Of a DNA stretch of 64,000 nucleotides, positions 2,758-36,425 are shown in pieces. This stretch comes from Gemmatimonadales bacterium. Its GTDB lineage: Bacteria; Gemmatimonadota; Gemmatimonadetes; Gemmatimonadales; GWC2-71-9. The notes under the pieces are model-generated. The model searched no databases, was not told the origin of the DNA, and was given only the letters and a program-made list of their open reading frames with translations. A program made the translations under genes and the position numbers. How positions within the stretch are numbered: the first letter of the stretch is position 1; the number at the start of each line of letters is the position of its first letter. Location of the stretch: NCBI GenBank assembly GCA_038321865.1, contig JBBQFH010000005.1, forward strand, positions 11,237-75,236, in the 5' to 3' direction.

Positions 2758-3532
2758 GACGCCGGTGCTGATCCGGGAGCGGCGGGGAGCCGTTGAGCTG
2801 CTGACGCTCAACCGGCCCGAAAAGCGGAACGCACTCAACGGCGAGCTCCGCGCGGCGCTCCTGACGGCGCTCGCCGGCATCGCGGCGGACCCGACTGTCC
2901 GCGCCGTCGTCATCACCGGCGCCGGAGACAAGGCGTTCGTCGCCGGCGCCGACGTGAGCGAGTTCGCCAAGCGCGACGTGGCGGCGCAGGCGCGGACGAT
3001 GCAGGGCCCGCGCGTCTACGACGCGGTCGCCGCCATGGAGCGGCCGGTGATCGCCGCGATCAACGGCGTCTGCCTGGGCGGCGGCCTCGAGCTCGCACTC
3101 GCCTGCGACATCCGCATCGCGTCCGCGGCCGCCCGGTTCGGCCAGCCCGAAGTCACTCTCGGCCTGATGCCGGGAGGTGGCGCCACCCAGCGGCTCCCGC
3201 GCCTCGTCGGCACCGGGGCGGCGCTCAGGCTGATCCTCACCGGCGACCCGATCGACGCGGCCGAAGCGCTGCGGATCGGGCTGATCGAGGAGATCACGGA
3301 GCCCGCCGGCTGCGTCACTCGTGCCGTCGCGCTGGCCGAGCGGATCGCCCGGAACGCCCCGGTGGCGGTGGCCGCCGCCAAGCGGGTGACCCGCGCGGCG
3401 CTGGGCCTGCCACTCGATGCCGGGCTCGACCTCGAACGCGCCGCATTCCTCGCCGCCTTCGCCTCGGATGACCGCACTGAGGGGGTCCGCGCCTTCCTCG
3501 AGAAGCGCCCGCCGACGTTCACCGGCCGATGA
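2747..3532 (+). CDS. Enoyl-CoA hydratase/isomerase
   Basis: LTLNRPEKRNAL, AFVAGAD, GGGLELALACD, FGQPEV.LGLMPGGGATQRLPR; both catalytic Glu residues present. Confidence 0.92.
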   Translation: MNGETPVLIRERRGAVELLTLNRPEKRNALNGELRAALLTALAGIAADPTVRAVVITGAGDKAFVAGADVSEFAKRDVAAQARTMQGPRVYDAVAAMERPVIAAINGVCLGGGLELALACDIRIASAAARFGQPEVTLGLMPGGGATQRLPRLVGTGAALRLILTGDPIDAAEALRIGLIEEITEPAGCVTRAVALAERIARNAPVAVAAAKRVTRAALGLPLDAGLDLERAAFLAAFASDDRTEGVRAFLEKRPPTFTGR

Positions 3533-4374
3533 AGACGCCGCTGCCGCAGCTGGTCACGGTCGGGGGAATCGGGCTGCACTACGCTGCCGCCGGCAGCGGT
3601 CGGGCGATCGTTTTCGTGCACGGCGGCCTGGGTGATTACCGCTACTGGGCGGCGCAGCTCGAGCCGTTCGCCGCGCGCGGGCGCGCGGTCACCTACAGCC
3701 GGCGCTACTCGTATCCCAACGACAATCACCCCTTCGACCCCGAGTACTCGCCGCTGAGCGATGCCCGCGATCTGATCGGCCTGATCGAGGCGCTGTCGCT
3801 CGGCCCAGCGCACGTCATCGCGGCCTCGATCGGGGCCTGTGGCGCGCTCTTCGCGGCGGTCGAGCGTCCCGATCTGGTCCGCTCGCTGGTGGTGGCTGAG
3901 CCGCCGATGCTGCGCTGGCTGCCCGAGCTGCCCGGTGGCGGCGCTGTCTGGCGCGCCTTCCGGGAGCAGGTCTGGGACGTCTGCACCGAAGGCTTCCGCC
4001 GAGGCGAGCGCGTGCGGGCGGTGGCGGCGTTCATCGACTACTTTCTCGGTCCGGGCCGCTACGACCGTCTCCCGGCGCCGGTGCGTGCCCGGATCCTCGA
4101 GGACTCGCGTGACCTCGAGGCGCAGGCACTGTCGGTCGCTCCCTTTCCCGAGCTGGGCCGTGACGCCATCCGGGCGCTCCCGATGCGGGTGCTGATGCTG
4201 AGCGGCGCGCTCACCCGCCCCACTCACGCGCTGGTGGATGCCGAGCTGGAGACGGTGCTGTCGCTCGGCGAGCGCGTCATCGTGCCGGCGGCCGGGCATG
4301 ATGTGTGGGTCGAGCAGCCGGCATTCTGCCGCGATGCGACGCTCGCGTTCCTGAATCGGGTGGAGCAGCGGTGA
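3529..4374 (+). CDS. Alpha/beta hydrolase
   Basis: VFVHGG, nucleophile elbow AASIG, LVVAEPP, C-terminal AGH; ATGA overlap. Confidence 0.8.
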   Translation: MKTPLPQLVTVGGIGLHYAAAGSGRAIVFVHGGLGDYRYWAAQLEPFAARGRAVTYSRRYSYPNDNHPFDPEYSPLSDARDLIGLIEALSLGPAHVIAASIGACGALFAAVERPDLVRSLVVAEPPMLRWLPELPGGGAVWRAFREQVWDVCTEGFRRGERVRAVAAFIDYFLGPGRYDRLPAPVRARILEDSRDLEAQALSVAPFPELGRDAIRALPMRVLMLSGALTRPTHALVDAELETVLSLGERVIVPAAGHDVWVEQPAFCRDATLAFLNRVEQR

Positions 4375-4979
4375 ATCACTATCTCGCGCTGGGCGATTCC
4401 TACACCATCGGCGAGGGCGTCGAGGCCGGCGGCCGCTGGCCGCTCCAGCTGCGGAAGCGCCTCGTCGCCCGGAACGTCGAGCTCGAGCCGCCCACGATCA
4501 TCGCCCAGACCGGCTGGACCACGGCGGAGCTGATGGCGGGAATCCGTGAGGCCGCCCCTGAGGGCCCGTTCGCCCTGGTGTCGCTCTCCATCGGGGTAAA
4601 CAATCAGTACCGCGGCCTGCCGCTCGAGGAGTACCGCGCCCAGTTTGGCGAATTGCTCGCGCTGGCGGCGGGGCTCGCGGGGGGTGAGTCGCGCAAGGTG
4701 CTGGTGCTGTCGATTCCCGACTGGGGCGTCACGCCGTTCGCCAAGGGGCGCAACCGGCCGGCGATCGCCGAGGACATCGACCGGTTCAATGCCGCGTGCC
4801 GCGAGGAGACCGGCCGCGTCCGGGCCCGGCACGTGGACGTGACGGCCATCTCCCGCCGGCACGGCGACGACGCTAACTATCTTGCACCCGACGGCCTGCA
4901 CCCCTCCGCACCCATGTACTCCGAGTGGGCCCACGCCGCCGAAGCCGAGGCGCGCCAGGCGCTCGGGGCGAGACGGTAG
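4371..4979 (+). CDS. SGNH/GDSL hydrolase
   Basis: YLALGDSYT, IGVNN, DGLHPS; GTG start overlaps the upstream stop. Confidence 0.88.
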   Translation: MNHYLALGDSYTIGEGVEAGGRWPLQLRKRLVARNVELEPPTIIAQTGWTTAELMAGIREAAPEGPFALVSLSIGVNNQYRGLPLEEYRAQFGELLALAAGLAGGESRKVLVLSIPDWGVTPFAKGRNRPAIAEDIDRFNAACREETGRVRARHVDVTAISRRHGDDANYLAPDGLHPSAPMYSEWAHAAEAEARQALGARR

Positions 4980-31321: not shown

Positions 31322-32068
31322 ATGCGCAAGCTGATCCTCTCCTGCATCCTGGTCGCCGTTCCCGCCGCGGCCGTCGCGCAGGTCGCCGGCCATTTTCCAC
31401 CGGACTCGCTGGTCAACACCAAGGTGATCGCGCACAACACACCGGTCATCCAGGTGGTGGGCATGATGCGGAACTTCGCCGGCGGGCTGGGCGTCCGCTG
31501 CCCGTACTGCCACGTCGGCGAGGAGGGCCGGCCGCTAGAGACCTTCGATTTCCCCAGCGACCAGAAGCGCACCAAGCTCGTCGCCCGGCAGATGATGCTG
31601 ATGGTCCAGGAGATCAACCGTCGGGTGGACACCCTGCCCGGCCGCACGAATCCCGGACTCCAGGTCACCTGCGCGACGTGCCACCACGGCGCCAGCCGCC
31701 CGGTGCCGCTCGGCATGCTCATCGCCGATGCCGCGACGGCCGGTGGTGCCGATTCCGCCGTCAGGACCTACCGCGCGCTACGCGAGCGGTATTACGGTCG
31801 CGACACCTACGACTTCAGTGAGAACTCGCTCAACACCGCCGCCTTCCGCCTGGCGCGCGCGAACAAGTACGACGAGGCGTTCGCGCTCCTTCGGCTGAAC
31901 GAGGAGTTCTATCCCACGTCGTCCGGCATGTACGTCTTCCGCGGCAATATCGAGCTCCTCAAGGGCGACACCACCGCCGCGGCGAAGGCGTTCGGTGAGG
32001 CGGTGCTGCGCGACCCGAAGAACCAGGAGGCGCAGGGGCGGCTGCGGGACATCGGCCGGAAGCCATAA
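31322..32068 (+). CDS. Diheme c-type cytochrome with C-terminal TPR-like region
   Basis: Signal peptide; CPYCH and CATCHHG; candidate Met ligands (MMRNF, ARQMM); TPR-like end. Confidence 0.88.
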   Translation: MRKLILSCILVAVPAAAVAQVAGHFPPDSLVNTKVIAHNTPVIQVVGMMRNFAGGLGVRCPYCHVGEEGRPLETFDFPSDQKRTKLVARQMMLMVQEINRRVDTLPGRTNPGLQVTCATCHHGASRPVPLGMLIADAATAGGADSAVRTYRALRERYYGRDTYDFSENSLNTAAFRLARANKYDEAFALLRLNEEFYPTSSGMYVFRGNIELLKGDTTAAAKAFGEAVLRDPKNQEAQGRLRDIGRKP

Positions 32069-32159: not shown

Positions 32160-32378
32160 GTGGACACACCCCGGTTACGAAACCGACTTCGCGTGGCGCG
32201 CGCCGAGCTGAGGATCTCGCAGGAGCAGGCCGCCGTCCTCGCCGGGGTCACCCGGCAGACGATCAGTTCGATCGAGACCGAGCAGTACACCCCATCGGCT
32301 CTGCTGGCATTCGTCCTGGCGCACCGATTGGGGAAGCCGGTCGGCGAACTCTTCTTCCTGGAAGGAACCGCATCATGA
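32160..32378 (+). CDS. XRE-family HTH transcriptional regulator
   Basis: LRNRLRVARAE..ISQE..A..AGVTRQTISSIE..QYTPS..LAF.LA. Confidence 0.92.
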   Translation: MDTPRLRNRLRVARAELRISQEQAAVLAGVTRQTISSIETEQYTPSALLAFVLAHRLGKPVGELFFLEGTAS

Positions 32379-32668
32379 CATCCGCAGCCGTGGAGCGCGA
32401 CGAACGGACCGTCGCCCTGGAGAACTCGGGCTACCGCTGGTCCTACCTGGTGCTGTCGTTCGGTCTGCTGCTGAGCGTCGCGTACCGGAGCTTCGCACGC
32501 GGTGAGACATCGTGGGACCTGTTCGCGTTGGTGCTGGTGGGAGGCGCCGTGAACGCGGTGTACCAGGCCACGCACCACGTGCTGTACCGGCGCTGGGCGG
32601 TGTTGTCCACGCTGGCGATACTGGTCGGAGCGGCACTGGCCGCGATGCTCGTCGTGTTTCGGCACTAG
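32375..32668 (+). CDS. Small membrane protein coupled to the XRE gene
   Basis: DERT motif then three hydrophobic helices; ATGA overlap. Confidence 0.75.
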   Translation: MTSAAVERDERTVALENSGYRWSYLVLSFGLLLSVAYRSFARGETSWDLFALVLVGGAVNAVYQATHHVLYRRWAVLSTLAILVGAALAAMLVVFRH

Positions 32669-32703: not shown

Positions 32704-33507
32704 ATGATCATCGGACTGGCGTCGCCGGGCGTGGCGGCCAGTCTGGAGGACGGCCTCGGGCGTATCGACCGGCTTCTGGCGGATGCATCGGGCCGGGGCG
32801 CCGAGATCGTGTGCTTCCCCGAGGCGTACCTCCCGGGACTGAGGGGTCAGGACTTCGACGTGCCGCCGTTCGGCGAGGCGCAGCAGGAGGAGACGCTCCA
32901 GGCCGTCGGCGACCTGGTTCGACGGCACGGAGTCACCACGATTCTCGGCATGGAACGCGTGACGCCGGCCGGCCGCCAGATCGCCGCCTTCGTCATCGAT
33001 CATCGCGGCCGGCTGCAGGGCTTTCAGACCAAGAACCAGCTCGATCCCACCGAAGACCGCCATTACATCCCTGGACACACTCGCCGGCTCTTCGAGGCCG
33101 GCGGCGTGAAATTCGGCATCGTGATCTGCCACGAGGGGTGGCGATATCCGGAGACGGTCCGCTGGGCGGCGGTTCGTGGCGCCAGGATCGTCTTCCACCC
33201 GCACCATGCGGGAAGCGACCGAACCGGGGCGCGCCCCCAAAGCTGGGGCGCCGCGGGCGGTGCCTACTACGAGAAGGCGATGATGCTCCGGAGCATCGAG
33301 AACACCATCTATTTCGCCAGCGTCAACTACGCGCTGCGGTTTCCGGAATCGGCCACCAGTCTGATCGAGCCGTCGGGCCAATGTGAGGCGTATCTGCCGT
33401 ACGGAGAGGAAGGGGTACTGGTGCGGGAGATCGATCCCGCCCGGGCGACCGGACTACTGGCCGGCCGGTACGCGCCCGACCGCTATCAGGACGAGAGCGT
33501 CGAATAG
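32704..33507 (+). CDS. Carbon-nitrogen hydrolase (nitrilase superfamily)
   Basis: Catalytic triad motifs CFPEAY, QTKNQ, VICHEG.RYPE. Confidence 0.9.
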   Translation: MIIGLASPGVAASLEDGLGRIDRLLADASGRGAEIVCFPEAYLPGLRGQDFDVPPFGEAQQEETLQAVGDLVRRHGVTTILGMERVTPAGRQIAAFVIDHRGRLQGFQTKNQLDPTEDRHYIPGHTRRLFEAGGVKFGIVICHEGWRYPETVRWAAVRGARIVFHPHHAGSDRTGARPQSWGAAGGAYYEKAMMLRSIENTIYFASVNYALRFPESATSLIEPSGQCEAYLPYGEEGVLVREIDPARATGLLAGRYAPDRYQDESVE

Positions 33508-34301
33508 CCGGCGGTCAGCGCCGGCCACTCCGCCGCATCGAACCGCAGGTGTGGGACGACACGGGCGCCGAGGGCGGCCGCGGCCGGCACCAGTCCGGCG
33601 TTGACGGCCGCCCCGCCCACCAGGATCGGTCCGGTGAAGGCGGGCGGGCGGGCGAACGCGTCGAGCAGGACGCGAAGTGCCGGAGTCTGTGAGGGCATGG
33701 AAATCGACAGGCCGACGGCTGTGCACCGCTCCGACAATGCCGCGTCGACGATGGCCTGGGGGCTGAATCCGTAACCCAGGACCGTGGTGCGCACGCCCAT
33801 GCTCTCGAATCCCAGGCTCGCGAAGCGAAGCCCGAGCATGTGCATGTTTCCCGGAACCGCGGCGATCAGGATCGTCGGTGCGTTCGGCGCCGGCGCGCTC
33901 AGCGCCGCCGCCTGAATGTGGCGCTCGATCAGATCGACCAGCGCCTCGCAGGCTTCGGTGAAGCGATGCTCTTCGCACACCGTCAGCAGGTTCGCTTCCC
34001 AGCGCCGGCCCACGGTGACCAGCTGGGGTCCGGCAAAGCCGAACAGCATGTCGAGCGGTCGGATGCCCGCCGCAAACCCTTCGACAGCGAGCGCTTCCAT
34101 CTCGAGTGGCGCGCCCTTGCGCCCCGCAGCCCAGAACCGGCGGTTGAGGTCCGCGAGATACCGCATTCGCCGCTCCTGCTCTCCGGTCCACTGCAGGACG
34201 GAATCGCCGCAGGCATCGCAGAGCCCGTGCGATACTTCATGGGTCTCGTACGGCGAACTCTCACCCTGGAACCGCTGACAGTACGCGCACCATTTGATCA
34301 C
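33486..34301 (-). CDS. Cobalamin-binding protein (CarH-type helical bundle plus Rossmann domain) with N-terminal Cys4 zinc-finger-like motif
   Basis: WCAYCQ...SHGLCDAC; VGRRWEANLLTVCEEH (W-x9-EH); GNMHMLG; VGLSIS; ILVGG; GTG start overlaps upstream TGA (GTGA 34298-34301). Confidence 0.82.
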   Translation of the reverse strand: MIKWCAYCQRFQGESSPYETHEVSHGLCDACGDSVLQWTGEQERRMRYLADLNRRFWAAGRKGAPLEMEALAVEGFAAGIRPLDMLFGFAGPQLVTVGRRWEANLLTVCEEHRFTEACEALVDLIERHIQAAALSAPAPNAPTILIAAVPGNMHMLGLRFASLGFESMGVRTTVLGYGFSPQAIVDAALSERCTAVGLSISMPSQTPALRVLLDAFARPPAFTGPILVGGAAVNAGLVPAAAALGARVVPHLRFDAAEWPALTAGYSTLSS

Positions 34302-35539
34302 GAGACACTCGCCGCTGCGTCCAGCGCGACGGACAGCTCGCGCACCGCCGCCCGCCACTCGTTGCCGAAACGGGTCTCATCGGTCAGCCACGACTCGATG
34401 GCCGCGTAGGCGCCGGGCACGCCGGCCGCCTCGTCGGCATGCGCCGAGGCCAGCAGCGGCACCGCACCATGGAGGGCGGAAAGGCGTTGGTCGAATCGGG
34501 CGTTCAGGTCTTCCACCGCCGCATCGGGCAAGTGAGCCCGCCGGCTTGCGCCCAGCTCCCCCACCACGCGCCTGAAGCTGGCGGTCTCCCGGGTGCGCGC
34601 CGGCGCCGCGGATTCTATCTCCGTCGCCAGCTCACGCATGTGTGTCTCGAGAATCAGCGTGGGAATGCCGCGGCTCGCCAGCACCGTGCGTAGCCACGCG
34701 ATGCTTCGGGCGATGGATTCATACTGGAGCGGCATGAGGGTAAGCAACCAGCAGCTGTCGCTCGCGGTGAACCGCCGGCCGCGTTCGCCGAAGCGCCGCT
34801 CGAGGTACGGATACCGTTCCCGCGCACGGACCCCCGCACGGATCGCGATGGCGATCTCGGCCGGATCGTCCGGCAATGCGTGCCGGCCCGCCTCGGGATT
34901 GAGCGCCGTGAGCTGCACGGTGACGTTGGCGGCGGTGAAGGGAAAAAGTGCCAGCACGATGGTCTGCAGCCCCGCGAAGGCGGCGACCGCGGCCGCCTCG
35001 ATTCTGCCTCCTTCGGGGTCAGTCAGCCGGATCGCGTCGAGGTCGGTCACGAACCGCGTCCAGGCCCTGCGGGTCTCCTTGCCGTAGCAGCCGAAGTAGC
35101 GAAGGGCGTCCGGCGCCACGTCGAGCGACTTGGCAAAGAGCGACTTCAGCGCGATACCACCGTTCTGCGAACCCTCGAACACGTACAGATAGCCGAGCAG
35201 CTCGATCTCGGGTGACTGCACGAGCTGGTCGGCCATCGCGAGTGCGGCGCGGACGGCGGGATCGATCGCCGTAAGGTGCCCTTCGGGCCGCAATGCCAGG
35301 TCTTCGATCAGGTGCGGCAGTTTTGCGAGATCGTCCCGCCAGACCCGTCCGACCCGGGGGTCCCGGGCGGTCGAGAGGCCGCGCTCGAGCACGGCATGGA
35401 TGATCGCAAGACAGTGGAGATACGATTCGGCCGCGGCGGCGGGCAGCGTCCCCGCCCGCAGCGCGTCGTAGAAGGGCGTCGCCTCGATGCCGTCATGAGC
35501 GTTCGATGTCGCCGCCTGCAGGCGGGCTCTCACGGACAT
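34298..35539 (-). CDS. Biliverdin-producing heme oxygenase fused to a C-terminal helical (putative phycobiliprotein/globin-like) domain
   Basis: L..AT..AH..IE..PF (proximal His), LLGYLYVFEGSQNGG, RYF..Y, W..F...LD, A.AAF; about 210 extra residues including YPYLERRFGERGRRFTASDSCWL and WLRTVLASRGIP; AAGGA RBS before ATG 35539. Confidence 0.85.
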   Translation of the reverse strand: MSVRARLQAATSNAHDGIEATPFYDALRAGTLPAAAAESYLHCLAIIHAVLERGLSTARDPRVGRVWRDDLAKLPHLIEDLALRPEGHLTAIDPAVRAALAMADQLVQSPEIELLGYLYVFEGSQNGGIALKSLFAKSLDVAPDALRYFGCYGKETRRAWTRFVTDLDAIRLTDPEGGRIEAAAVAAFAGLQTIVLALFPFTAANVTVQLTALNPEAGRHALPDDPAEIAIAIRAGVRARERYPYLERRFGERGRRFTASDSCWLLTLMPLQYESIARSIAWLRTVLASRGIPTLILETHMRELATEIESAAPARTRETASFRRVVGELGASRRAHLPDAAVEDLNARFDQRLSALHGAVPLLASAHADEAAGVPGAYAAIESWLTDETRFGNEWRAAVRELSVALDAAASVS

Positions 35540-35724
35540 GCACATCCTTGATGCCGCCCGGGACGGCGGAGATTGCGGGGCTTCGCTACCGGATGGAACA
35601 TAGCGGGTGGTGGACGCGCTCGCCTTTCACGCAGTGCCAGCCGCGCGATGAACTCCTCATCCCCGGGCGCATAGCTCCGTGCAATACGAAGGAACTCGCT
35701 CCCGCTTCACACGGTCCGGTCGGG

Positions 35725-36207
35725 CTACCGGTTGAGGGCGCCCCGGATGCGGCCAAGATGGTGATAGCTGTGGCGGACGGCGTGATCCTCGAGCACGAAC
35801 TGGCTGGTGAGCGGCGCGTCGAAGTAGAGTGAGACGGGCGCTGCCCGGTCCAGCTCGGCGTCGCTCAGCGCGCGGATCGCCGCGGCCGCGGCCGCGCTGT
35901 TGGTGCGCAGCAGCGCCAGCGCCTCCTCCCTGGTCACGGCGTCGTTGTCCCGCGCGTGCCCCGCGTTCATCGCATGAACGTCGGCCATCGTCACTCCGGC
36001 CACCGGCTTGCCCGCCGCGACGGTCTGGGCCAGCTGGATTTCGAGCGGATACACGCTGGCGACATGGTGCACGATGACGCCGATCTTGCGGCCATCGCCT
36101 GGTACCGGCGTCCGCCATTCAGCGTCTGTGAGCGTGGCGGCCAGGCTGGCGAGTGCGTGTGCGCCCTGTTCGAGACAGTCAGCCAGGGCATCGGAACGTT
36201 TGCTCAT
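35725..36207 (-). CDS. DinB/MDMPI-like four-helix protein
   Basis: LTDAEW.TP, GVIVHHVA, LSDAELDR, HAVRHSYHHL..I. Confidence 0.8.
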   Translation of the reverse strand: MSKRSDALADCLEQGAHALASLAATLTDAEWRTPVPGDGRKIGVIVHHVASVYPLEIQLAQTVAAGKPVAGVTMADVHAMNAGHARDNDAVTREEALALLRTNSAAAAAAIRALSDAELDRAAPVSLYFDAPLTSQFVLEDHAVRHSYHHLGRIRGALNR

Positions 36208-36425
36208 GGTCAGTCCACTCCGTTAAGAGTCGGGGCGCGCCCTCGTGGCGCGAGAGCCAAGGTACGATGGTGTCGCCCATTCACAAGAGACTGATCGCCC
36301 TGCACCGGAGGGTGGGGTTGTGGCGGGACCGCCCGGAACGGTACTGTAGGACGGCGGACTGCAAACCTCTCTCGAGAAACGTGCGTGAGGGCCGAGGCCG
36401 CGTTCATCCAGGAGAATCTCGATTA

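Follow-up and report, generated by a model that had tools for sequence, protein, structure and literature searches.

We describe here two overlapping genes that probably encode a self-supplying sensor module of the photocobilin type, divided between two chains. Gene 1 encodes a heme oxygenase to which a globin module of the bilin-binding type is fused, and gene 2 a B12-binding protein with an N-terminal zinc ribbon. The genes lie in a 64,000-nucleotide stretch of DNA, called the window below, from a Gemmatimonadales bacterium (GenBank assembly GCA_038321865.1, contig JBBQFH010000005.1, positions 11,237 to 75,236 of the forward strand), and all positions refer to this window. Judged from their sequences, the two proteins resemble known photocobilin sensors split into two pieces, with a Cys4 ribbon and a conserved C-terminal subdomain added, and not a new kind of system.

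Organization of the gene pair

The following features were recognized.

34298..35545, minus strand: gene 1, 415 aa, heme oxygenase, bilin-binding-type globin module and C-terminal subdomain (ORF and translation)
34967..35530, minus strand: heme oxygenase domain, residues 6-193 of gene 1 (Pfam PF01126, E 6.6e-14)
34592..34903, minus strand: predicted bilin-binding (photoglobin-type) module, about residues 215-318 of gene 1, with T260-x-x-D263, W284 and R292-G-I-P295 (hhalign)
34301..34591, minus strand: C-terminal subdomain of gene 1, about 95 residues (319-415), conserved across the gene 1 family
34298..34301, minus strand: GTGA stop/start overlap, in which TGA is the stop of gene 1 and GTG the start of gene 2 (direct read)
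33486..34301, minus strand: gene 2, 271 aa, zinc-ribbon and B12-binding protein (translation)
34206..34301, minus strand: N-terminal CxxC...CxxC ribbon of gene 2 with Cys5, Cys8, Cys28 and Cys31 (conserved motif)
33927..34142, minus strand: B12-binding_2 four-helix cap, residues 54-125 of gene 2, with G98-x-x-W101 and E111-H112 (Pfam PF02607, E 1.7e-6)
33600..33875, minus strand: B12-binding Rossmann domain, residues 143-234 of gene 2, with G151-x-x-H154 (Pfam PF02310, E 1.1e-9)

An initial annotation of this DNA had described a minus-strand gene pair overlapping at a GTGA, and the sequence at 34298-34301 reads exactly so. An alternative start of gene 1 at 35539, two codons later, gives the 413-residue version of the gene caller (P0003). 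In the public annotation, gene 2 (P0123, 226 aa) begins at Met46 and loses the ribbon; the GTG start is favored over Met46 because conservation supports it.

The heme oxygenase domain of gene 1

Gene 1 has 183 relatives at E ≤ 0.001, and PF01126 was found in 118 of 120 among the matches listed, most of which are about 420 aa long. The PF01126 match of gene 1 itself scored 52.7 bits against a cut-off of 23 and extended over profile positions 4-198 of 204, and the GYLYVFEGSQNGG motif is present in the translation. A comparison of the family profile with the PDB retrieved HO-2, HO-1 and HmuO (E 4.5e-17 to 1e-11, profile positions 1-201). In it, His17 falls on His25 of human HO-1 and LEGSQNGG on LGDLSGG; the distal helix of the gene 1 oxygenase is LYVFEGSQNGG. 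Conservation in the family reaches at least 90% at His17, G125 and G129 and is complete at G118, Y121, E124 and S126. His17 is probably the proximal heme ligand, where the roles of this residue and of the Gly-rich distal helix are ones that we presume from the HO-1 literature. With a full-length PF01126 match above the cut-off and with both a proximal His and a Gly-rich distal helix in place, the oxygenase is apparently intact, as the initial annotation had stated.

A bilin-binding-type module and a separate subdomain in the extension

The approximately 210 extra C-terminal residues that had been ascribed to gene 1 are present and conserved in the family. They had been read as one bilin-holding domain, of which the first half stands, sharing homology with the globin-like, bilin-binding domain of photocobilins, whereas the last ~95 residues belong to a separate subdomain. 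In hhalign comparisons, the first ~105 residues of the extension matched the photocobilin-like bilin-binding domain with a probability of 93.8% (E 1.8e-7, 85 columns); a deeper profile of 257 sequences gave 92.3% (E 5.7e-7, 103 columns, residues 216-332 of a 339-aa photocobilin-like protein), and another alignment of the gene 1 family with the photocobilin-like alignment gave 89.2%. These probabilities are below 95% and cover only half of the extension, and a direct profile search of the PDB with the extension reached the photocobilin structures 8j2x and 8j2w only at E 0.34-0.4. At the level of residues, the gene 1 family shows little or no variation at T260-x-x-D263 and W284, and five family-invariant residues (T, D, W, R and P) coincide with the photocobilin-like invariants T265, D268, W294, R302 and P305. 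The aligned Asp and Trp are the equivalents of Asp270 and Trp296 in SasPcob (PDB alignment and PMC10979010), and the Thr three residues before D263 corresponds to the pocket motif of photoglobin D49/SasPcob Asp270. The homology of residues ~215-318 to the bilin-binding globin-like domain of photocobilins is hence supported.

By sequence comparison, the last ~95 residues are a separate conserved subdomain without a photocobilin counterpart. R335, A368, D371 and W397 are invariant there, and the subdomain gave no match in photocobilin-like proteins (E 0.12) and no sequence match in Pfam or the PDB. An internal duplication of the extension was also considered and rejected, the two halves giving E 0.35 when compared with each other.

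The B12 module and the Cys4 ribbon of gene 2

Homologues of 260-268 aa span 95-97% of gene 2. Both B12 Pfam matches are above their cut-offs, and residues 48-257 matched the B12 half of photocobilin-like proteins with an hhalign probability of 99.8% (E 1.5e-27). When the light-sensing cobalamin signature was applied as defined in PMC11796333, its elements GxxW, EH and GxxH were all found in gene 2 (G98-R-R-W101, E111-H112 and G151-N-M-H154, respectively); among the homologues, G98, W101, H154, L156 and G157 are invariant, and E111 and H112 are conserved to at least 90%. At the fourth element, GxxxP, gene 2 has G-Y-G-F-S-P, which is one residue longer, and its nearest homologue (P0124) has G-G-G-T-P; this position is poorly conserved among the homologues. 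His154 is aligned with the cobalt-ligating His of MetH and of the photocobilin chains and would, by this correspondence, be the lower axial ligand. The CarH-type cobalamin-binding module that had been proposed for gene 2 is supported by both Pfam domains together with the GxxW/EH/GxxH signature.

The ribbon motif, WCxYCQxFxGE...HGxCxxC, recurs in all 20 zinc-type sequences extracted and is conserved in 12 of the 15 rows of the gene 2 homologue alignment. In a codon test of the ribbon, differences were clearly concentrated at position 3 in two of five in-register pairs (10/12/25 for L001/L008 and 8/8/24 for L006/L001). No Pfam family was assigned to the ribbon, the best match being PknG_rubred at E 0.13.

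Pairing of the two genes in related genomes

A survey of gene neighborhoods had been suggested as a check on the pair, and the two genes do stay together: the B12 gene is present at 53 of 80 related loci, and at 40 of the 80 it is on the same strand and no more than 150 bp away. The DNA fetched around 27 of the loci shows no B12 gene; all five of the no-neighbor genomes tested, furthermore, encode a family-type B12 protein elsewhere. The pairing spans phyla, and the distance matrices of the two proteins are correlated with a Mantel r of 0.84 (46 pairs; 0 of 2000 permutations as high), a value inflated by shared ancestry. A zinc-ribbon partner occurs at 21 related loci, and its start is within 6 nt of the stop of the heme oxygenase fusion on the same strand in 15 of them, which indicates that the arrangement of the genes is not due to chance; the start/stop overlaps in relatives are mostly ATGCTGA.

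The pair had been described as having no recognizable output domain. This holds for the window, where no output gene was found within about 14 kb of the pair, but not for the relatives, in which response regulators and histidine kinases flank it: same-strand ORFs with REC, PAS or kinase domains are present at 30 of the 32 loci of the ribbon-less subtype and two-component genes are mostly absent at the zinc-ribbon loci (present at 7 of 21), both counts being inflated by shared ancestry. A form in which the B12 and bilin modules are fused was not found among the 150 representatives listed or in the related loci. One apparent three-part fusion (a 718-aa ORF, L016) was rejected; its oxygenase fusion is split over two frames, which points to a frameshift and not to a real fusion. 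Also, a search of 40 relatives, five genomes of the same genus among them, did not turn up the pair, which is therefore dispensable for the lineage.

Comparison with known systems

In bphO-bphP operons, a heme oxygenase supplies biliverdin to the bacteriophytochrome encoded beside it. The window similarly encodes a HemO/BphO-type oxygenase with a candidate biliverdin receiver, but the receiver is a fused globin-type module in place of a PAS-GAF-PHY protein. The genome (89.85% complete) gave no match to a phytochrome PHY domain, which extends the earlier remark that the window has no phytochrome, and it encodes one heme oxygenase. Like CarH and AerR, gene 2 has the domains B12-binding_2 and B12-binding with GxxW, EH and GxxH; CarH differs in its N-terminal MerR helix-turn-helix, in place of which gene 2 has the small Cys4 ribbon domain.

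The closest likeness is to photocobilins (SasPcob, 8j2w/8j2x; AbPcob, 8j2y), which were described in 2024 as carrying B12 and bilin domains in one polypeptide and in which Asp270 and Trp296 of SasPcob bind biliverdin and touch the corrin, as far as the source was available to us (PMC10979010). By sequence profile, the window pair has in common with them a CarH-type B12 domain and a bilin-binding globin-like domain, and also the W-x9-EH cap, a His as lower ligand and residues equivalent to Asp270 and Trp296. Photocobilins are single chains, whereas the window pair, known here from its genes, comprises two polypeptides; its bilin module, moreover, lies between a fused heme oxygenase and an additional ~95-residue subdomain, and the B12 protein bears the N-terminal Cys4 ribbon.

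Parts of this architecture have been published. In the purely computational study of Schneider et al. (2022; PMC8717448, text and legends), the Fig. 4 legend names Heme_oxygenase (PF01126) as one of the fusion partners of photoglobin, a "biliverdin-producing heme oxygenase" is among the PSI-BLAST hits, stand-alone photoglobins almost always adjoin B12-binding genes, and the photoglobin pocket has a T/S/C-x-x-D motif; the window module shares both the oxygenase fusion and the motif, as T-x-x-D. According to the portions consulted of Rockwell et al. (2023; PMC10151467, restated in PMC13446030), biliverdin is bound by the BBAG-2 globins, for which an association with B12 proteins and heme oxygenase is described. 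As with BBAG-2, the gene of a globin-type module adjoins a B12-binding gene here and heme oxygenase is encoded in the genome. BBAG-2 is, however, separate from the oxygenase, and its RGMC motif, the Cys of which forms adducts, sits where the gene 1 family has RG[MIL]P, so that the equivalent in gene 1 is Pro295 (RGIP); the motif was located in 76 family ORFs, of which 75 have Pro at this position and none has Cys. BBAG-2 also goes with a pre-2 bilin reductase, while no match to the ferredoxin-dependent bilin reductase family (PF05996) was found in the genome of the window (89.85% complete).

The idea of a two-chromophore pair is therefore not new, because the oxygenase and photoglobin architecture, the B12-adjacent photoglobins (PMC8717448) and the globins associated with oxygenase and B12 proteins (PMC10151467) are already in print, as far as these sources were accessible. 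In the literature consulted, which included PMC8717448 by its text and legends, we met with no account of either the zinc ribbon or the extra ~95-residue C-terminal subdomain; neither "zinc" nor "ribbon" occurs in the accessible text of that paper. These two parts are thus where new biology could lie.

Proposed mechanism and alternative explanations

In the reading that we consider probable, the heme oxygenase domain of gene 1 would, by homology, cleave heme to biliverdin, and the fused photoglobin-type module, which keeps the SasPcob-type Asp and Trp, would take up the product non-covalently. Gene 2 would be translationally coupled to gene 1, and its product, as the signature suggests, would bind adenosylcobalamin in the base-off/His-on state through His154 under the W-x9-EH cap. 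Given the homology of both halves and their conserved pairing, the two proteins may dock with the bilin beside the corrin as in single-chain photocobilins, and light would then alter the assembly state of the pair. In the ribbon-less subtype the two-component proteins on either side would most likely receive the signal; for the zinc-ribbon clade, to which the window belongs, our guess is that output occurs through protein-protein contacts made by the ribbon or the C-terminal subdomain.

It is instead possible that the heme oxygenase is the regulated output, the B12 protein and globin module gating a light-dependent degradation of heme, with release of iron or production of CO or biliverdin. 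Photocobilin domains are described as activating an attached or added enzyme, with the fused diguanylate cyclase being gated in AbDPcob (PMC10979010, consulted in part), and the oxygenase is the only enzyme in the pair, with no other output gene nearby in the window; its fusion to the module is strict (most among the 150 representatives listed are about 420 aa), and the zinc-type loci are mostly without two-component genes. We still regard this explanation as unlikely: the kinases and response regulators around the pair at nearly all ribbon-less loci point to a signaling output, and the module also occurs by itself, with no heme oxygenase attached. The oxygenase as a supplier beside a bilin receptor, furthermore, has a precedent in bphO-bphP.

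Some bacterial heme oxygenases are limited by product release, which would suit a light-independent, tetrapyrrole-handling pair in which the module accepts biliverdin for turnover of the oxygenase and the B12 protein senses or carries cobalamin or senses redox via Cys4. The sediment habitat of the one full holder, the weak likeness of the ribbon to a rubredoxin knuckle (E 0.13) and the inexact GxxxP element are in line with such a role; to our mind it is nonetheless improbable in view of the W-x9-EH cap, which is specific to light-sensing cobalamin domains (SignatureFinder study, PMC11796333), of the homology of both halves to a proven two-chromophore photoreceptor and of the CarH-like regulator also kept in the genome. 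Hardly credible at all is that gene 2 encodes a corrinoid methyl-carrier of the MtbC/MetH type, functionally unrelated to gene 1 and adjacent to it by operonic coincidence. Several homologues are named "methanogenic corrinoid protein MtbC1" by their sources, and methionine synthase fragments came first in a single-sequence PDB search with gene 2 (E 9e-8, against 1.8e-5 for photocobilins and 0.019 for CarH), but in the alignment neither the W nor the EH position is present in methionine synthase, and the NCBIfam scores for MtbC (14 bits against 350) and metH (16.8 against 1011) are far under their cut-offs, as is that for CarH (20.5 against 400). No conserved methyltransferase gene adjoins the pair in the 80 related loci, and the conservation of the pairing across phyla is also at odds with coincidence.

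If the two-chain photocobilin-type reading is correct, a natural form in which the bilin module is welded to the bilin-making enzyme would show a route of chromophore delivery, whether B12 and bilin halves assemble in trans, and what such modules signal to without an attached kinase. Photocobilins are a recently characterized class of photoreceptors of interest for broad-spectrum optogenetics, and a self-supplying pair would suit heterologous use, since biliverdin need not be provided from another source. For the zinc-ribbon clade, a rather doubtful extension is a self-contained light switch without a two-component system, in which the ribbon would replace the DNA-binding domain of CarH and the ~95-residue tail would give a light-dependent output, be it binding to a DNA or protein target or light-gated breakdown of heme. 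Were this true, heme and iron turnover would be coupled to light via two tetrapyrrole chromophores made or activated by the cell itself.

Genomic surroundings

An Rfam scan of the window gave no match, and nothing was found in a promoter and terminator scan of 33200-36300. The DinB-family gene upstream (35725-36207) was considered as a member of the unit and rejected, no such neighbor family recurring in the 80 loci. The flanking nitrilase was not found in five same-genus genomes at E ≤ 1e-20; the GC content around the pair is flat (0.66-0.71) and gives no signal of an island. The genome also encodes a PduO-type adenosyltransferase and a CarH-like MerR-B12 protein. Sediment is the habitat of the sole full holder, possibly the source sample itself.

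Heme oxygenase fusion and its overlapping partner

The initial annotation had described two minus-strand genes joined by a GTGA overlap, and this layout was confirmed by the open reading frames and their translation; GTGA is common to the GTG start of gene 2 and the TGA stop of gene 1. The features of the pair are as follows.

34298..35545 (-): gene 1 (P0001, 415 aa), ORF
33486..34301 (-): gene 2 (P0002, 271 aa), ORF with GTG start
P0001 residues 6-193: Heme_oxygenase (Pfam, E 6.6e-14, above cut-off)
P0001 residues 319-415: C-terminal subdomain of ~95 residues, with invariant R335, A368, D371, and W397
P0002 N-terminal 32 residues: Cys4 ribbon (Cys5, Cys8, Cys28, Cys31)
P0002 residues 54-125: B12-binding_2 (Pfam, above cut-off)
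P0002 residues 143-234: B12-binding (Pfam, above cut-off)

No Pfam match was obtained in P0001 residues 200-415, and NCBIfam had no name for P0001 or P0002, the models of CarH, MetH, and MtbC scoring far under their cut-offs.

Gene 1 had been claimed to encode an intact heme oxygenase with a proximal His. Indeed, the Pfam domain is complete, and a profile of 28 family members matched human HO-2 and HO-1, Synechocystis HO, and HmuO (E 4.5e-17 to 1e-11, profile positions 1-201), with His17 on His25 of HO-1 and LEGSQNGG on LGDLSGG of the distal helix. We take His17 to be the proximal ligand and the LEGSQNGG stretch to be the distal helix of gene 1. In the family alignment, His17, G125, and G129 are conserved at ≥90%, and G118, Y121, E124, and S126 are invariant; the enzyme is read as intact and presumably active. 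A full-length search retrieved 183 relatives among 8000 candidates; PF01126 was carried by 118 of the 120 relatives listed, the named sources of which were Gemmatimonadales, Rhodospirillales, Thermoanaerobaculia, Vicinamibacterales, Trueperaceae, and Desulfosalsimonadaceae.

Extension of gene 1 resembles the bilin-binding domain of photocobilins

When the last 211 residues of gene 1 were searched against 1.84 billion representatives, 540 matches were found at E ≤1e-3 and 437 at ≤1e-10; among the 150 listed, most were proteins of ~420 aa matched at around residues 210-415, and some were stand-alone proteins of ~215 aa. Conservation is higher in the extension than in the enzyme, and the extension has the motifs NPEAGxH, YPYLExRFGERGRRFTxSDSxW, and WLRxVLAxRG[MIL]P.

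A direct profile search of the PDB with the extension gave 8j2x and 8j2w at E 0.34-0.4 only, and the case for a bilin-holding domain, as initially proposed, therefore rests on profile-profile results and coincident invariants. A profile of the stand-alone copies, run over 301 actinobacterial genomes, weakly matched (E 1e-4 to 4e-3) the tails of 391-443-aa frames that open with a B12 module, one of which aligned over its full length with photocobilin structures (8j2y, E 2e-81; 8j2w, E 7e-52). In profile-profile comparison, the stand-alone copies matched four photocobilin-like proteins with 89.2% probability (E 2.2e-6) and an alignment of 18 such proteins with 93.8% (E 1.8e-7, 85 columns). Also, a 257-sequence profile made of the first 118 columns matched 28 photocobilin-like proteins with 92.3% probability (E 5.7e-7) over 103 columns, which correspond to residues 216-332 of a 339-aa protein, i.e., the near-entire bilin-binding domain. 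T260, D263, W284, R292, and P295 of P0001 align with T265, D268, W294, R302, and P305, invariant in the 18-protein alignment, and D268 and W294 in turn correspond to Asp270 and Trp296 of the photocobilin SasPcob through the alignment with photocobilin structures, once a six-residue shift between the numbering of the chain and that of the paper is allowed for (W61, E71-H72, and H108 agree with this shift). According to the available text of PMC10979010, Asp270 is a key biliverdin-binding residue, and Trp296 is in contact with both the corrin and ring D of the bilin. Furthermore, T-x-x-D of P0001 agrees with the pocket motif that PMC8717448, in the available part, gives for photoglobins (bilin-binding globin-like domains), C/S/T-x-x-D. 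The first half of the extension would hence appear homologous to the bilin-binding domain of photocobilins.

The ~95-residue subdomain, in contrast, had no match to the first half of the extension (E 0.35) or to the photocobilin-like proteins (E 0.12) and is, as judged from its sequence, family-specific. Among the 76 fusion-family ORFs where the motif was located, 75 have RG[MIL]P and none has Cys, whereas the biliverdin-binding globins BBAG-2 have RGMC (Rockwell et al., PMC10151467, in the text available); we infer that the two motifs are homologous.

Some variant arrangements were also noticed. In P0142 (632 aa), a single heme oxygenase domain precedes two extension stretches, and there is no B12 domain. 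Three actinobacterial copies of the extension (loci L091, L092, and L094) have another conserved N-terminus of ~100 residues (AVVGVERV...) in place of heme oxygenase. In a Nocardioides MAG (L072, 5556-7090), heme oxygenase and the globin-type protein appear to be encoded by separate, overlapping frames, of which the globin frame comes first. Two frames also share the fusion in L038, L071, and L012, as possible frameshifts or real splits.

B12 module and Cys4 ribbon of gene 2

The B12 half agrees with the CarH-type cobalamin module initially suggested. Alignment of the gene 2 family with the photocobilin-like proteins (hhalign; 99.8%, E 1.5e-27) paired residues 48-257 with 9-207 of the latter, which suggests homology to the B12 half of photocobilins. 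The light-response signature of cobalamin photoreceptors is GxxW, EH, GxxH, and GxxxP (PMC11796333, available text), and three of the four elements are kept (G98-x-x-W101, E111-H112, G151-x-x-H154), the fourth being off by one residue. In a single-sequence search, methionine synthase fragments (E 9e-8) ranked above photocobilins (1.8e-5) and CarH (0.019), but methionine synthase is without the W and EH positions in the alignment.

The ribbon motif, M-L-x-W-C-x-Y-C-Q-x-F-x-G-E...H-G-x-C-x-x-C, was found in 20 of 20 extracted sequences, and differences concentrated at codon position 3 in two of five in-register pairs (10/12/25 and 8/8/24 for positions 1/2/3). The GTG start is therefore considered right, and the public call P0123, from Met46, too short. 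The ribbon matched no Pfam family (best, PknG_rubred at E 0.13). Oxygenase fusions, we noticed, often end in Cys (16 ORFs); fusions of the ribbon clade have TGC-TGA as their final codons, inside the partner's ATG-CTG-A, and the terminal Cys may thus be a by-product of the 7-nt overlap and not a functional residue.

Conservation of the pair and relation to known systems

Adjacency in other genomes, a check proposed initially, was surveyed with one genome per species; at least 599 pattern matches were obtained, at least 422 of them encoding a relative, and the best 80 loci were kept (one, L068, from a genome flagged unpublished). By HMMs of the two families, a B12 gene was found in 53 of these best 80 loci, and in 40 of the 80 it is on the same strand and at most 150 bp away; 21 partners had the ribbon and 32 did not. 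The remaining 27 had no partner, at least five of them with one flank shorter than 700 bp, and all five no-partner genomes tested had a family-type B12 frame elsewhere (E 1e-21 to 6e-38). Of the 21 ribbon loci, 15 have a partner start that lies no more than 6 nt from the stop of the gene upstream, mostly as ATGCTGA. Clustering of neighbor ORFs gave one large family, in 48 of the 80 loci, composed by Pfam of REC-LuxR, REC-EAL, REC, PAS-REC, and PAS-kinase hybrids; same-strand two-component members occurred in 30/32 ribbon-less, 7/21 ribbon, and 2/27 no-partner loci.

In a quick maximum-likelihood tree of 68 full-length fusion proteins (13 partial or globin-only loci left out), the window falls in a clade of 18 rows (SH-aLRT 100). 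Sixteen of these rows have ribbon partners; a contig end truncates the partner in another, and the last locus is without one. Acidobacteriota, Myxococcota, Pseudomonadota, and Deinococcota are all represented in this clade. The distances of the two proteins are correlated (Mantel r 0.84, 46 pairs; none of 2000 permutations as high). These counts share ancestry; they show that the two genes are inherited together and do not represent independent events.

In the available text of Schneider et al. 2022 (PMC8717448), "biliverdin-producing heme oxygenase" entries were retrieved as photoglobin-containing, Heme_oxygenase is listed among the fused domains, and stand-alone photoglobins almost always adjoin B12-binding genes within two-component operons. 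For BBAG-2, Rockwell et al. 2023 (PMC10151467) describe a separate globin gene beside a B12-binding gene, in genomes with a heme oxygenase. A 2026 paper (PMC13446030, in the part available) states that such pairs share homology with both chromophore domains of photocobilins. Two-chromophore photochemistry has been proved for single-chain forms, and stand-alone photocobilins can act through protein-protein contacts (Zhang et al. 2024, available text). The pair is a variant of a catalogued architecture and not a new kind of system. A split B12/biliverdin sensor, as initially read, is the best-supported explanation and probably the right one, each biochemical step being a prediction. Our literature search turned up no experimental work on the oxygenase fusion and no paper on B12-binding with a zinc ribbon and photoreceptor; the Cys4 ribbon of gene 2, the additional subdomain at the C terminus of gene 1, and the contrast of ribbon loci (few two-component neighbors, overlapping genes) with ribbon-less loci were not found in print, while figures and supplements may already show the subfamily.

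Genomic setting

This genome (3.4 Mb, 89.85% complete) has one heme oxygenase and one extension copy; neither a PHY domain nor a ferredoxin-dependent bilin reductase was found in it. A PduO-type adenosyltransferase is present, as are five B12-binding matches; one of the five is a 312-aa frame (L084, 901-1839 (+), contig C13) with W-x9-EH and E-x-H-x-x-G in its B12 module and, by sequence reading, a MerR-type N-terminus. This frame may be a CarH-like regulator, so that the organism may have a second, classical cobalamin photoreceptor.

The fusion was in none of 40 relatives, and the pair is thus accessory here; heme-oxygenase-only matches occurred in three of the 40, and the five same-genus genomes among them (66-91% complete) had neither fusion nor heme oxygenase matches. 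The GC content of the pair does not stand out. No kinase, receiver, or cyclase was found within ~14 kb, and the only regulator-like gene nearby is the following.

32160-32378 (+), strand opposite the pair: XRE-type helix-turn-helix gene, 72 aa

It overlaps the start of a 97-aa hydrophobic ORF (32160-32668 (+) together), ~800 bp past the 3' end of gene 2. A convergent carbon-nitrogen hydrolase gene (32704-33507 (+)) overlaps that 3' end by 22 nt (33486-33507) and was not found in the five same-genus genomes at E ≤1e-20; the whole stretch around the pair may therefore be variable. A 248-aa protein at 31322-32068 (+) partially matches the photosynthetic reaction-centre cytochrome c subunit (PF02276, E 1.4e-9), with a weak TPR match under the Pfam cut-off. 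In a Rhodospirillales MAG (L015), where no B12 partner was found in the locus, a frame downstream of the fusion (3493-4557 (+)) presumably resembles, by eye, a magnesium-chelatase BchI-type ATPase.
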